A program made the position numbers. DNA of 64,000 nucleotides from NCBI RefSeq assembly GCF_054482595.1, contig NZ_CM137008.1; one strand, given 5' to 3'. Every line of letters starts with the position of its first letter. Position 1 is the first letter of the stretch. Below, in pieces: positions 35,801-41,800 of the stretch.

Positions 35801-38800
35801 ATAGAAGTGCTATCCGGCAGCTTCTTAATGAATCCAGTTCAAAGCCCTGTAAAGGAACAAGCCGCTTTTGCTGTAAAAAACGTTCGGCAAGAGTGACTAA
35901 TTTGCTTTGTTCCTGTTCCGTCAGACCCGTTAAAAGGGGGATCGATAGTGCTTCCTGCCAGGGAAGGGCAGTTTGATATGCTGATTCTTGTACTTTCCAG
36001 GGCCACTTAATCATCGTTTTGCTCGCAAACTCGTCACTTGAACAAAATTGCACGGACAGGGACTGTTAAAATGCCAAATTTCCTGGCATCATGGCAACCA
36101 TCTGAACGGAGAGATGCCGGAGCGGCTGAACGGACCGGTCTCGAAAACCGGAGTGGGGGCAACTCCACCGGGGGTTCAAATCCCCCTCTCTCCGCCAAAA
36201 TTCAATCACTTACACATCATTAAGTCAGTGACAAAAATCACACTTGGAATTACTTGGAATATTTTCTTGGAATATTTTCAGGTAACGGGACATCAAGTGT
36301 TGGTGAAACTTTAACCTTCCTGTCATAGATTAGCACTTGCCCTTCGGTTTTGTGACCAGAGAAAAGTTGCTTATCCCGGCTGCTTCCTTCATAGTCTGAA
36401 ATTCCTTTCGCCTTCAGATCATGAAAGGTGAAGTCGGTTAAAATACCTGAAATTTTTCCAGCACGATTTCTTGCATCTACCCACATTTCGTTAAAGCCTT
36501 TGTACATATATCGGTTGCCGTATTGATTGCTGATCACATAGGCAGATTTTGGTAACTGTTTTGCTTTTTCGATCGCTGCCTGTAATCGTGGACTCCATGC
36601 TTTTATCTGTTTTTTTCCGGTTTTCCCTTGCTGGATGAATATCCCGTCGTTTCCAATCTGTTCCCATTTCAGCGATAACACATCGGAAACCCTCGCTGCA
36701 CACAGATAGGCAATTTCCATTGCGATAAAAACAGGAAGAGGTGCAACGCTTAATACTGCCTGGTATTCTTTGTCGGTTACATATCGTTCGCGGTTTTTGG
36801 CCTTGAATTTACTTACACCTGCACATGGGTTAGCCTTCACGTACCCTCGCTCATACCCCCAACTGTAAACACGGGACATACTGCTTTTTTCATGGTTGGC
36901 TTGCGTTTTACTCTGCTCCCCTCTTTTGTCCATGTATCGACGGATGTGTTCTGGTTTTATGGAATCCGCTGGTACCTTACCGAATACGGCAAGCAACTTT
37001 TTTTGATGTTGCAGATAATCTTTTTGTGTTCTTGGACTAAGGTCACTGTAATAGGCGCTGGCGAGGAATTTTTCCCACAAGCGACCGAATGTCATTGCAC
37101 GATCGCGATTATTTACAGTTTCCTCATACTTTTTCCATAAAGCAGCTAAACCATCCTTGATGGCGGTTAGTGTGACAGATTCTCTGGATGTTGGTTTCCA
37201 TACATAACTATATTTATTTGGGTATACATTTGGAGGTAATTTTTCGTGTTCAGGATTTTTCCTTCGTCTTCCCATCAGATCGCACCAAAATTCGGCTCTA
37301 CCTCGCGTGGTGGTAAAGTTTTATTGCAGGTAAATAGATCCCGGCTGACAATCGGTTTGCCACTACGATTGGTATAGAACGGAAGCCCGTTTTCCATTAA
37401 CCATTTTCGCTGGTGGCTTGCATATTTGCAGCCCGTTAATATTTGCAATTCATCTTCGGTTAAAAATAAGCTGCTCATAGCTATATCTCATAACCGCCGC
37501 TAACTATATACGGTTAGCGGCAATTAGGGTTGAACATTAAAAATCAGCCTGACTCGGGATCAGTTTTTGCCAGATAGCTGAAACGTATTTTGCCTGGTAA
37601 CGAGCGTCATCAAGTGCATTATGGCGCTCACCTTCGAATGGAATAGCCGTTCTGGCATCGAAGTCTATGGCTTTCCCCAGCTCAACGATTGTGCGTACAT
37701 CGCGATCGTTGTAGTAACGCCACGGGCAGGGGATCCCCTGCCGTTCGTATGAACGGCGCAAAATCGTGTTGTCGAAGTTGGCTCCATTTCCCCAGACCTG
37801 AACAAAAAATTCACCGGAGTTTTCGTCGATAAATTCCCGCAATTGTAACAGTGCATCATCTAACGGGATTTCATCGGTCATAATGGCAGATTGCGCTTCG
37901 CGTGATTGCTTAAGCCACCATTTAATGGTGTCCCGATCAATGACTCCGCCAGCAGTTTCCAGATCGATAGTCTTACTAAATTCCGGTCCCATATCTCCGG
38001 TTTGCGGATCGAAAAATATTGCACCTATTGAGATGATCGGGGCATCAGGATTTTTTCCCATGGTTTCAAGGTCGATCATTAGATGGTCACACGTCCTGCT
38101 GGTGGATGTGATTTCGTGATGACCGTTCACCTTAATTGAGTGATCTGCCGTCTCGCCAGTTTTATTATCGCTGGCGTGATGCTGATTGCCGCCAGGGTTC
38201 TCCTTGTGTGGATGTTCAGCGCCTTCCATTTCCTCCGGATCATTTTCCTGAACTTCAACCTGATTCTCTTCATCGAATGTTTCCTGGTATGTTGCGTCGC
38301 CCATCACCGCGCCACAATCAGGGCAGTTGACGCCACCGCTCTGACCGCAGGCGGTGCAGACTTTTTCCGGTTCCTGTTGCGCTACTGATTCGGATTGTTT
38401 CGTTTCTGGCTCGTTTTGTAACGCATTTGGGCTGTTTTGTTCCGCTTTTTGGTCGTTCCGTTCCGATTCATGCTGGTTCTGGTTCACAGAATCGCGAGTC
38501 TGGATCCCCTTGACCCATTTCGGATCATTAGGGTCGCTAATCCCCTCAACAAATTCACCACGCGATACAGCAAGTAACTTATCGGCGTCAGGCTGGCTGA
38601 TATTGGCTGCCTGCATAATTTTGTTTACTTCGTCAGCGGTGACTTTTACTTGGTTAGCGGAACTCACCTGCGACTGAGCATCCAGCGACTGCGCGTTCTG
38701 GCCATGTTCAGTTGTATCCGGTTCCATTGTTTCAGTTGTTGCCTGTTCACCTGCCATTGCGTCAGATGGTTGTGGTTTTTCTTCTTCTGTTTCACGCTCA

Positions 38801-41800
38801 GTAACCACCTCGCGGTTAATTTCTTCCAGGATATCTTTTTCCGGCGTATGCCGGGCAGCTGTGAGAGTTTCCTTGCTGGGGTTCTCGTGATCAGTTTCCG
38901 TCAAATAGGCGTTGATATACCCCTGAAGGCGTCCCGGGTAGTGATAAAATTCAGGGTGTGCGCTTCGGATAAGTGCAAAAATAGCGGCGCGGGAATAGTC
39001 CAGAATACCCGGGGTTGCACGAAGTGCTGCGGACCATTCTTTGAACGGACTTTCTTTGTTCAGGACTACTTCTTTTGCGCGACGATAAACGCTGCCCGGA
39101 ATTTCATAAATATTAAAATCCATCGGAAGTGTGGCTGCTGCAATCTCCACATCCAGTGTGTCGAGGGTGTGTACTAAATTCGGATTGCGATCGGTTTTGT
39201 TCCCACCGCCAGCATTAGCACCGGAAGCCGTGCGGGTGATGCGTGAAACACGATTTCCTTTCATCCACTCTTTTGTCAGCAGACCCCGATCAGTGTAGTC
39301 AGCGTCCAGGTATGCTTCGAAAAAAGCAGTTATTAGTCCCAGGTCTGAATTACCAGGATTAGGGAAAACTTTGTCAGTGTCACGAACCAGTTTGTGGAGG
39401 TCGCGAATCTCCAGCGAGTCGAGCAGACTGGTTTTATGCGAAATAGCCAGGGCAGTAACAGCCGGTAGTTCTTCAGCCCGTGCAATGTGTAATGCCTGGA
39501 GTTCGTCGCGTGAAACGTGCGTTACTGGTTTTTCGCTGCCGTGTTGAGCAAGCCAACGAATGGGCAGTTCCTGACCGGAGACAGGCAGAAGCATGCTCTC
39601 CTCAATCTCAGTCATGTCTTCGCCGTTGATGTTGGTATTGTCAGTGCTGGCTGGTTTGTCCTGAACAGAGGGGGAAGGGCCGATAAATGTCATTGTGATG
39701 CCATCTTTCCCGCCTTTTTCATAGCGGTTGCAGAATTCAGTATCAAACACGCCTTCTGGCGGAAGGTCGTCAACAACGGGCAAATTGACGCGGACGGGTT
39801 TTTTAAAGTCGTCTTCATCATAATCGTTGTCATCCATTGCGGTAATGCAGCGGGAGATTGCAACAGATAATTTTTTTGCTGTAGTCCAGTAAAAACCACC
39901 TTTAATTCCCAGGCGTTTTCTTACTTTGTCATTTTTTGCTTCGCAATATAGTGCAAATTCTTCTTTATCAGTGCTCATTATTGGTAAACCTCATCACAGA
40001 TTTAAGGGTGAACAAATCTCTGCCATTGCTGACATATAAGAATGAAACTGGATATTTATTACGGTGCTGTTTTAAAATCCTGCCGGGATTTCGTTATTAT
40101 CCTGGTGAATAACTTTATCGACCGGATAACAGTTGCCTGGAATTTTCTGTTCGGTTGCTGCTGCCATACATTCCTGCTTTGTTCTGTGAACACTGACTGC
40201 AATATCAACTGGCTCTCCGGAAACAAGAAAAACCGTCAGAATAAGTGCAAATACTGGATTCATTGTGCACATCCTTTTGGCATCATACGTAAACGGGCCA
40301 GCATTGAAACAATGCATACTTTATTTAATAACTCCCGTTCGTGTTTTCTTTTGTTAATGGCATCTTCAGTAAATACAGGATTACTGATAGTGACACCAAT
40401 TTCAAAACAACCTTCAGACGTATTAACGTTTGGTAATAACGTTTTCATTATCGCGCCCTCAACAATGAGTTTTGTGATGCGGTGCCTGGTGCCTCCAGGT
40501 GACGTTAACCAGTTAACAATTAACGCCGGATACAGAGAATCCACCCATAACACTGTTTTTGGTTTTAACTGTTCCGCGTGCGCTTAGCCGCATTCACCGC
40601 ATCACAAAATTCACTTTAAAAAGGGCGGCAGAGCAGTCACGGAGTAAAACTGATACCGCCAAACGTCACCAGAAAATTGATAACAGAGGGCGTTGCAGCG
40701 GGGTTGTCACTTAAGCGTATGGTCAACCTGACAACCCGGTGTCCTCAACGGGGAAGGAATAACCCCGCCATACTTACCGCCGCGCCATTTCGCGGAGTGC
40801 CACAACCGGAAGCGCACGGTCGACGAAAATTTAACGACAGGCTATCTATGAACCAGCTACCTCGCCGTGCGCTTTCGCGTTATGGTCTGACTTTTCAGGG
40901 AAATATCCTTTCAGTAAACTGTCAGTGCCGGATGCTCACCCGTGTCCGGCGCACGCACTCCACCTCACCCGTGGAGAACTCCTTAATTACCAACCTTAGC
41001 TTCGTTGGTTAGCTATTAACGCGGGTATGTAATCATTCTGGCAATGCTTAATGCCGCTGCTTTTTCCAGATTGGTGATATCCTGCTCCAGAGCGGACAGA
41101 TTTTCAGCCTGCTTAGCCCTGGCTTCATTAGCCCATTTCAGATCCTGCGCTGCATTAATTTTCTGGCGCATCCACTCATAAAGTTCATCATCGGTATAGT
41201 CTGGCGCGATTATGACGGGTTCTCGTTTCTGCATGTCAGCTCCTTGTGGTTCGCATTGCCTGCTTTTAACCACGTCAGGCGAGGTGGTATCCTCTGAGGG
41301 GTCTGTTACTCGAGAGGAAATTGGTTATGAATACAATCAAGTTTTCTTGCCCAGAATGTGGTGGCGAAGTCTTTGACACATCCTTTAAGCCGCAGGGCTC
41401 TGACAGTTTCGCGGGAGCCATCTGCAAAAATTGTGGTCACCTTGTAACTGAAGATGAGTCCTCGCAGTTCGATGACGAAATCGTTGACAATATCTTCGGT
41501 GCACTCACCAGAGACTTTCTGAAATAAAGACGCATACCGCTTAGTTACCGCTCTGATAACTCTTACCTGTCCGGCAATGGCGCTGATGTCAATATAAAGC
41601 GCCATTGCTGCTTCTTTGCCGATCCCGTGATGCCTTCCATTCTGATGTTTGACTTCGCCCACTGAGAAATCCTCTGTTTCCCCTTAACGCCGGGGTAGCG
41701 GAACAAAAACCTGCTGCATAGTTATTAAAGTTGGACCCTGCCGTCATGTTCTTACGCCTCGGGCTGGCTACTTAACCCCTGACCACTGCCTGGTAACTCG

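Follow-up and report, generated by a model that had tools for sequence, protein, structure and literature searches.

A lambdoid prophage gene of Escherichia coli joins the non-catalytic region of RecE to a DEDDh-type 3'-5' exonuclease domain

The 64,000-nucleotide stretch of Escherichia coli chromosome analysed here (NCBI RefSeq assembly GCF_054482595.1, contig NZ_CM137008.1; hereafter, the window) carries a yeeJ-like adhesin gene, mtfA, four tRNA-Asn genes and a lambdoid prophage that is integrated beside a tRNA-Ser (CGA) gene. Directly upstream of the excisionase and integrase genes (xis and int) of this prophage lies an open reading frame (ORF) for a protein of 813 amino acids (aa), which starts with an ATG, is preceded by GAGG 10 nt upstream of that codon and occupies positions 37537-39978 on the minus strand, exactly where a reading of the sequence without database searches (the sequence-only reading) had placed it. 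The ORF is real, as its size and a ratio of nonsynonymous to synonymous divergence (dN/dS) of 0.05-0.42 in every region are far beyond chance. It is near certain that its product belongs to the RecE lineage and has undergone a natural domain swap: homology to RecE ends at about residue 615, where a DEDDh exonuclease domain begins, so that a different nuclease occupies the position of the PD-(D/E)XK nuclease of RecE. Tentatively, we suggest that the protein may process DNA ends during lytic growth of the phage.

The first three quarters of the protein, described as an unknown N-terminal region in the sequence-only reading, turned out to be the non-catalytic region of RecE itself. The NCBIfam profile PRK09709 (NF007259, exodeoxyribonuclease VIII) aligned with residues 1-615 over profile positions 1-602 of 877, with a score of 935.9 bits that lies under the equivalog cut-off of 1269. 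In BLASTP, residues 58-615 matched residues 50-591 of K-12 RecE at 58% identity, with no alignment past RecE residue 591. Pfam PF06630 (Exonuc_VIII) was found at residues 57-189 (E value 1.7e-35), and the RecE-aligned stretch holds a SRGEFV(E/D)-type motif, a Cys4 motif and an acidic tail that runs to "...GE(T/V)AD". Helical domain 3 of this region (Table 1) is also present, at about 40% identity in BLASTP, in sister proteins of the YdfE/Tritos type. The nuclease domain of RecE comprises residues 564-866 (PMC11611040), and a 2023 review describes its N-terminal domain as having no known function, as dispensable for basic recombination and as boosting linear-linear recombination (PMC11611040).

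Beyond this region the protein parts from RecE. Residues 632-803 matched Pfam PF16473 (Rv2179c-like 3'-5' exoribonuclease domain) with an E value of 3.3e-67 over model positions 2-177 of 177, in addition to a weak match to RNase_T. The catalytic residues D636, E638, D736, H786 and D791 align with D7, E9, D119, H186 and D191 of phage T4 DexA; in an alignment of 13 sequences four of them are invariant and D791 is near-invariant. In an AlphaFold2 (AF2) model built on residues 440-813, the domain was predicted with a local confidence (pLDDT) of 96-98. The top Foldseek match of the domain in the PDB was T4 DexA (8KEL, E value 3.5e-12), followed by RNase T, oligoribonuclease/REXO2 and Cap18. Domains of the PF16473 type occur in 638 phage records from many genera, lytic as well as temperate. 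By analogy with the fold, with DexA and with its E. coli homologue EcD, a 3'-5' polarity on DNA is predicted.

Conversely, the RecE nuclease could not be detected: the protein had no PDB sequence match to the crystallised nuclease domain of RecE, the only chains matched being 8KEL and 8KEN (both T4 DexA), and tblastn with RecE residues 592-866 gave no match in the window or in 80 related loci. The sequence-only reading had thus correctly assigned the nuclease to a DnaQ/RNase T-like rather than a RecB-family fold. Homology to a characterised exonuclease, which that reading had named as grounds for its refutation if it covered the whole protein, does not span the full length, as about three quarters of the protein are RecE-like and the catalytic domain differs. 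The family, which that reading had not recognised, is nevertheless recognisable in databases: the protein matches PHROGs 607, 2082 and 20376, the Prokaryotic Genome Annotation Pipeline (PGAP) names it "exonuclease" or "3'-5' exonuclease", and an identical (100%) copy of the gene in a prophage of E. coli Ecol_881 is annotated by PGAP as "exonuclease". Phage records name genes of this type "exodeoxyribonuclease VIII". As the PD-(D/E)XK nuclease of RecE is absent, recT is lacking and the profile score stays below the equivalog cut-off, this label is misleading, and "exonuclease VIII" is probably the wrong name for the 813-aa gene.

The two halves are joined by an acidic linker with a Cys4 motif, both of which the sequence-only reading had rightly noticed and had called unusual. 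The linker (residues 381-628) is predicted by AF2 to be mostly disordered, with pLDDT values below 50 over most of its length, short helices and a weakly ordered Cys4 knuckle (residues 541-555), for which zinc-ribbon Pfam matches were weak only. Both features are, in fact, inherited from RecE; the counterpart of the Cys4 motif in K-12 RecE is CNACGQTGGDNCPDC at residue 517. Among 53 long representatives of the family the Cys4 motif is found in only six, and a DPxDPxW motif of the linker in 25. We therefore assign the Cys4 motif to the RecE-type linker of E. coli rather than to the nuclease. The idea that the Cys4 motif and the acidic tract are peculiar to the 813-aa protein was rejected, given their presence in K-12 RecE and the lack of the Cys4 motif in most family members.

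The gene takes the place that recE takes in Rac-type prophages, in agreement with the sequence-only reading, which had likened its position to that of RecE/Exo-type recombination nucleases in lambdoid phages. On the minus strand, the order repressor, ydfC, DicF, dicB, ydfD-like gene, 813-aa gene, xis, int is that of a Qin-type dicB operon. Since the small RNA DicF and dicB lie directly upstream in the same operon, the exonuclease should be co-transcribed with cell-division inhibitors, as in Qin. A scan around the gene revealed no promoter-like or sigma-70-like site beyond chance upstream of it and no terminator beyond chance; as no promoter of its own was detected, the simplest reading makes it the last gene of the early-left operon. 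The distance between the repressor and the exonuclease gene amounts to only about 2 kb, filled by early-left genes, and no recT, bet, erf, gam or abc is found there.

Two observations concern the segment downstream. A perfect 9-bp inverted repeat, GCCGCTAAC-(8 nt)-GTTAGCGGC, lies at 37496-37521 on the minus strand, between the stop of the exonuclease gene (37537) and the start of xis (37478). It is not a typical intrinsic terminator, as no T-run follows, and it may form a hairpin that serves in RNA processing or regulation. In addition, the integrase gene of the identical Ecol_881 prophage (L035, 22704-23754) is flagged as frameshifted by PGAP. In the window, the integrase is a single 341-aa ORF that aligns with residues 1-336 of lambda Int in one frame, and the flag could stem from a change to the 3' end of the gene where it meets the attachment site (att).

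An adjacent annealing-protein partner, the search for which the sequence-only reading had advised, was found neither in the window, nor in the identical prophage, nor in the 80 related loci. In tblastn searches of the window, out of which the tail end of the prophage extends, RecT, Bet, Erf, Sak4, single-strand DNA-binding protein (SSB), Gam, Abc1/2 and lambda Exo gave no match. In the Ecol_881 prophage no annealase, SSB, recombination exonuclease, Gam or Abc is annotated from int to the head genes, RusA in the nin region being the only related entry. We then compared 80 IMG/VR loci bearing the DEDDh domain with 80 loci bearing the RecE nuclease domain. With ten reference proteins as queries, RecT, Bet, Erf, Sak4, SSB, Gam, Abc, lambda Exo or the RecE nuclease was detected within 10 kb in none of the 80 DEDDh loci, while RecT was present in all 80 loci with the RecE nuclease, all of them Rac-like. 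An integrase match was obtained in 78 of the DEDDh loci, with a median start 294 bp past the stop codon of the exonuclease gene. Representative proteins behaved alike: the PD-(D/E)XK representative is followed by RecT, while the DEDDh representatives lie directly before xis-int or int and have no RecT, as is also the case in phages vB_EcoS-640R1 and Tritos.

Genes of this type are common and are maintained. Among 5426 complete E. coli genomes, the full-length gene (coverage of at least 80%) is present in 1244, and the segment coding for the DEDDh domain in 4068 (about 75%), with up to seven copies each. When proteins from a search of 1.8 billion representative sequences were sorted by local BLAST, RecE-type N-terminal regions fell into three groups: 17 clusters carried a PD-(D/E)XK domain, at least 19 diverged clusters (counted at the 50% identity level) a DEDDh domain, and others neither. 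For 12 of 14 "nuclease-less" RecE-like proteins Pfam found no other nuclease; one of the remaining two is fused to RecT, and the other has a weak PD-(D/E)XK match. One 814-aa RecE-like protein with no recognisable nuclease domain (P0137) is encoded upstream of a Sipho_Gp157-family gene, which is followed by xis-int (locus L038, 6001-8996).

The N-terminus also varies. Of the 80 DEDDh loci, 20 have a RecE-type and 50 a YdfE-type N-terminus, the latter in an 823-aa form as in Tritos, and 10 are truncated or of other types; 65 of the 80 retain an uninterrupted ORF of about 800-830 aa. The Qin pseudogene ydfE of K-12 (MG1655 1650078-1650998) corresponds to the first 256 residues of the 823-aa form at 99% identity and is cut by IS2 (IS2E), indicating that K-12 once had the sister gene at the same position, between dicB-ydfD and int. 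Nei-Gojobori comparison of the window gene with six diverged homologues of the RecE-N type yielded dN/dS values of 0.05-0.28 in the folded domains, while those of the linker were 0.18-0.42. In one and the same pair, synonymous divergence (dS) ranged from 0.03 to 1.0 between regions, which points to intragenic recombination. Moreover, the gene is carried by phages that were deposited as isolated viruses. Purifying selection combined with modular shuffling indicates that the gene is maintained and functional rather than debris.

The prophage is also rich in Chi sites. Chi, GCTGGTGG, occurs 20 times in the whole window, compared to 1.95 occurrences expected by chance; 18 of these sites lie in the 27.8 kb of prophage (36201-64000), 14 on the plus and four on the minus strand, and none lies in the 26.7 kb of host DNA at 1-26744. 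The set of DEDDh loci has 0.29 Chi sites per kb, 241 of 254 on one strand, compared to 0.039 per kb in the Rac set. A "no Rec module - high Chi" class of lambdoid phages has been proposed to rely on host RecBCD (Zheng et al. 2025, PMC12315714). We assessed the prophage by the two properties that define this class, i.e. the lack of an annealase, SSB, recombination exonuclease or RecBCD inhibitor, and the presence of at least eight Chi sites in one orientation with few in the other. It fits the class on both counts. The same study by Zheng, Casjens, Smith and colleagues (2025, PMC12315714) independently reports that lambdoid Rec modules contain DnaQ-type nucleases, that such nucleases occur sporadically near int and that some RecE-like proteins lack a nuclease, and leaves their roles open.

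Stand-alone relatives of the DEDDh domain occur in several settings. Copies with 56-61% identity lie directly before xis-int in a Salmonella prophage (P0113 locus) and in phage phiNP, and in PhiR55_1 the stand-alone copy adjoins a small ORF at the att-proximal end of the genome. Both phages, phiNP and PhiR55_1, lack an annealase and contain 21-22 Chi sites. In contrast, the P22-like Escherichia phage CurroJimenez_Bas106 carries a 59%-identical copy inside a compact, canonical Erf-SSB-endonuclease-DEDDh-Abc2 module (L211, 22225-24765), and its genome has zero Chi sites. An exclusive tie of the DEDDh gene to Rec-less, Chi-rich phages is ruled out by this phage, with its Erf and Abc2 and no Chi. 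In one Salmonella prophage (L004, 4743-6570), a DndB-family (PF14072) gene precedes a gene for a 189-aa stand-alone DEDDh protein, in an ST64B-like early-left operon with yfdP and a DUF2303 gene.

Based on these results, we suggest that the exonuclease would be made upon prophage induction, as gene order implies, and would be a 3'-5' exonuclease that requires Mg2+ and attacks DNA 3' ends, to which the RecE-type N-terminal module would bring it. In the most economical view, it would trim or blunt 3' tails or flaps of linear or replicating phage DNA, as an accessory end-processing step in recombination-dependent replication, and the processed ends would pass to host RecBCD/RecA. The last step is suggested by a prophage that lacks a recombination module and is Chi-rich, and the role in DNA-end processing by the RecE-type scaffold together with stand-alone homologues inside Rec modules. 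A resection-annealing machine of the RecE/RecT type is not what we envisage, since the 3' tails on which annealases and RecA depend cannot be generated by a 3'-5' enzyme. Taken as a whole, i.e. the domain swap together with a stand-alone 3'-5' exonuclease that processes DNA ends in lytic growth, this explanation is our preferred one, and we would put it at somewhat under an even chance.

Several points weigh against it. 3'-5' exonucleases usually inhibit homologous recombination, and int-proximal DnaQ-type genes were explicitly not counted as members of Rec modules (Zheng et al., PMC12315714). Carriers of the DEDDh gene include Chi-rich Rec-less phages as well as a Chi-free phage with Erf and Abc2, so that the gene is not specifically tied to the use of RecBCD and Chi. 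The namesake of PF16473, Rv2179c, is RNA-specific, although the family also includes the DNases DexA and EcD. Activity on DNA, substrate and polarity of the 813-aa protein are predictions from sequence, and the timing of its expression is read only from gene order. The N-terminal module has no recognisable fold, and its delivery of the nuclease to DNA ends is a guess. Finally, both locus surveys consist mostly of close E. coli prophages, the RecE set being essentially Rac, so that the counts of 0/80 and 80/80 overstate the number of independent observations.

The main rival explanation, which we nonetheless consider unlikely, is defence or superinfection exclusion of the HREX type, in which an EcD-like exonuclease selective for the 5-hydroxymethylcytosine (5hmC) DNA of T-even phages would shield the host or the prophage. 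The PF16473 protein EcD, which is homologous to T4 DexA, was shown to digest T4 DNA and, when supplied from a plasmid, to protect E. coli (PMC12153337), EcD-like proteins are 37% identical to the DEDDh domain (E value 2e-33), and prophage DEDDh exonucleases can act against RNA phages (PMC13344964). Moreover, the gene adjoins int and att, a common site of prophage accessory genes. However, the residue signature of Kang et al. is not found in the 813-aa protein (W152 and D169 of DexA align with Y756 and A775, and D90 is kept as D708), EcD-like genes reside in another type of element and not in a lambdoid early-left operon, and the protein and its five scanned neighbours matched no PADLOC model. 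With no promoter of its own detected, expression of the gene in a repressed lysogen is doubtful. Close homologues lie inside Rec modules and in lytic phages, and fusion to a RecE N-terminal region would have no obvious role in defence. The sequence-only reading had considered a recombination exonuclease or a defence or anti-defence nuclease; the genomic context favours a role in DNA transactions over defence. An RNA 3'-5' exonuclease like Rv2179c or RNase T, which would trim dicF-dicB-xis-int or host transcripts during induction, seems to us quite improbable. The Pfam family is named for a 3'-5' exoribonuclease, structurally close enzymes include RNase T, oligoribonuclease and REXO2, and the operon also makes the small RNA DicF and has a hairpin between the gene and xis; yet DexA and EcD, the only close homologues to have been characterised and, in the case of DexA, also the nearest relative with a solved structure, are DNases, the N-terminal region is common to a dsDNA exonuclease, and stand-alone homologues lie between DNA-recombination genes.

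The remaining two alternatives carry still less weight. DexA, the closest solved structure, has been described as scavenging host DNA (PMC12153337), and dimeric oligoribonuclease-like enzymes are among the structural neighbours, so that the protein could degrade oligonucleotides to mononucleotides for phage DNA synthesis. Such a salvage role is very improbable, given that the visible part of the prophage showed no endonuclease that would degrade host DNA and that a conserved, 600-aa RecE-type extension on an 800-aa protein is hard to explain for an oligonucleotidase. Lambdoid phages are not known to degrade the DNA of their host, which also counts against salvage. Least probable of all is that the gene is a non-functional by-product of mosaicism, a chance in-frame fusion in a decaying cryptic prophage. 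Mosaicism is indeed high (the dS range of 0.03-1.0 within one pair), RecE-N and YdfE-N types and DEDDh alleles are shuffled, truncated copies including K-12 ydfE exist, and some RecE-like proteins have no nuclease. Nevertheless, this explanation is largely refuted by the intact ORFs, about 800-830 aa long in 65 of 80 loci, and by purifying selection on every folded domain (dN/dS 0.05-0.28); the catalytic residues are conserved, and the gene is found in phages deposited as isolated viruses.

A more far-reaching reading, which we consider decidedly unlikely, would treat the approximately 600-residue N-terminal region of RecE as a nuclease-agnostic platform. It is found joined to PD-(D/E)XK (with RecT), to DEDDh (alone), to RecT or to nothing; the DEDDh form would then represent an annealase-independent pathway, in which Chi-rich lambdoid phages that lack a recombination module trim 3' tails so that host RecBCD can load and use their Chi sites. 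If true, this would be a phage-encoded "end-preparation" step that hijacks host recombination.

Parts of this picture are already known: the gene is annotated in thousands of genomes, both halves are known Pfam families, and DnaQ-type nucleases near int are in print. In the literature, we found no description of the swap of the RecE nuclease for a DEDDh domain, of the consistent lack of RecT or of the tie to ydfE, and no experiment on any fused form of RecE-N or YdfE-N with DEDDh; on ydfE and PF16473/Rv2179c-like proteins nothing relevant was found beyond Kang et al. 2025. The swap matters for annotation, as the name "exodeoxyribonuclease VIII" suggests a RecE-type 5'-3' activity together with a RecET pathway that is missing from these prophages. 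The RecE N-terminal region is kept under selection in the absence of both RecT and the PD-(D/E)XK nuclease, which narrows its possible roles, and the natural swap provides a ready-made pair of proteins to compare for its function. The exonuclease gene is an obvious candidate in the use of host RecBCD by these phages; if, instead, it is EcD-like, a gene carried by very many prophages would act in defence.

Table 1. Features of the 813-aa gene, its product and the surrounding operon (positions in the window)
Feature	Position	Strand	Basis or remark
813-aa gene: RecE-type N-terminal region, disordered acidic linker and DEDDh exonuclease domain	37537..39978	-	ORF, Pfam, NCBIfam, PHROGs
RecE-homologous non-catalytic region, aa 1-615 (RecE 1 to ~591)	38134..39978	-	NCBIfam PRK09709, BLASTP, Pfam
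N-terminal alpha/beta domain, aa 1-105	39664..39978	-	AF2
Helical domain 2, aa 117-250	39229..39630	-	AF2
Helical domain 3, aa 270-380	38839..39171	-	AF2; BLASTP to Tritos 823-aa protein
Acidic, mostly disordered linker with short conserved motifs, aa 381-628	38095..38838	-	AF2, dN/dS, K-12 RecE
Conserved linker motif, aa 472-488	38515..38565	-	One residue differs in K-12 RecE
Cys4 knuckle, aa 541-555	38314..38358	-	Also in K-12 RecE at residue 517
DEDDh 3'-5' exonuclease domain, aa 632-803	37570..38085	-	PF16473, alignment, AF2, Foldseek
Putative prophage repressor	41932..42351	-	ORF, annotation
DicF small RNA	40623..40674	-	Rfam RF00039, 76.7 bits; marks Qin-type dicB operon
dicB (cell-division inhibitor)	40260..40448	-	ORF; PGAP of identical prophage
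ydfD-like gene (DUF1482), upstream neighbour, same operon	40072..40263	-	ORF; mapped from PGAP of identical prophage
Excisionase-like gene (DUF4224), directly downstream of exonuclease gene	37275..37478	-	ORF; PGAP of identical prophage
Tyrosine integrase	36250..37275	-	ORF, PGAP of identical prophage
tRNA-Ser (CGA)	36108..36197	+	Prophage/chromosome junction, adjoins mtfA; ARAGORN, Rfam, PGAP

Further features of the window lie outside the operon. A giant YeeJ/invasin-like adhesin ORF of about 2685 aa, with many Big-domain repeats, occupies 26745-34802 on the minus strand and adjoins tRNA-Asn and mtfA; the TTG start listed for it is probably artefactual. In the prophage, four phage tRNA genes are clustered in the leader of the late region at 50019-50328 (+), which ARAGORN identified as Met(CAT), Lys, Thr and Gly; the CAT tRNA is a tRNA-Ile according to PGAP in the identical prophage. 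A toxin-antitoxin locus of the hok/sok type lies at 46264-46439 (+) and 46377-46589 (+), as judged from an Rfam match to the sok RNA (112 bits) and from hokD annotated in the identical prophage.

Among known systems, the 813-aa protein most resembles K-12 Rac RecE, with which it shares 58% identity over about 560 residues, including the Exonuc_VIII region, the linker and the Cys4 motif, as well as the place of its gene in the early-left operon of Rac/Qin-type prophages. It differs in that the PD-(D/E)XK domain is replaced by a DEDDh domain of opposite predicted polarity. While the gene order in Rac is recE-recT-ralR-rcbA-xis-int, xis here follows directly after the 813-aa gene, and recT, ralR and rcbA are missing. 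The YdfE or 823-aa "exonuclease" form of Tritos, mEp460 and PPompW has the same linker and DEDDh domain (92-99% identity from about residue 440) and the same position between dicB-ydfD and xis-int, but its first approximately 245 residues are unrelated to the RecE N-terminus, helical domain 3 alone being common to both.

On the side of the nuclease, T4 DexA (8KEL/8KEN) belongs to the same Pfam family and has the same fold, with aligned DEDDh residues and a phmmer E value of 7e-8; it differs in coming from a lytic phage, in standing alone (227 aa) and in having extra loops, and shares only 28% identity. Kang et al. 2025 (PMC12153337) solved the DexA structure and reported that EcD, its homologue in E. 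coli, protects cells and digests T4 DNA that contains 5hmC, a system they named HREX. EcD-like genes were recovered here via a published primer sequence, so that EcD is only approximately identified; the proteins found in this way have a PF16473 DEDDh domain related to that of the 813-aa protein, but are stand-alone, about 189-193 aa long, and are encoded in another integrative element, which also carries an integrase gene, a gene for a Dam-like methylase and a large primase-like ORF. In the signature proposed for EcD, the Trp and Asp of DexA (W152 and D169) that are reported to be needed for action on 5hmC DNA are retained and the Asp that forms the tetramer is lost, a combination that the 813-aa protein does not show. 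The position of W152 varies among homologues (Y/C/F/R/A/W), D169 is aligned with A775 in a stretch where the alignment is uncertain at this level of identity, and the tetramer-forming D90, kept here, is Ala78 in EcD. Finally, stand-alone DEDDh genes of lambdoid phages, in operons of the ST64B/phiNP/LLS type and in P22-like Rec modules, encode a 56-61% identical domain as proteins of 180-240 aa, without the RecE-type N-terminal region that distinguishes the protein described here.

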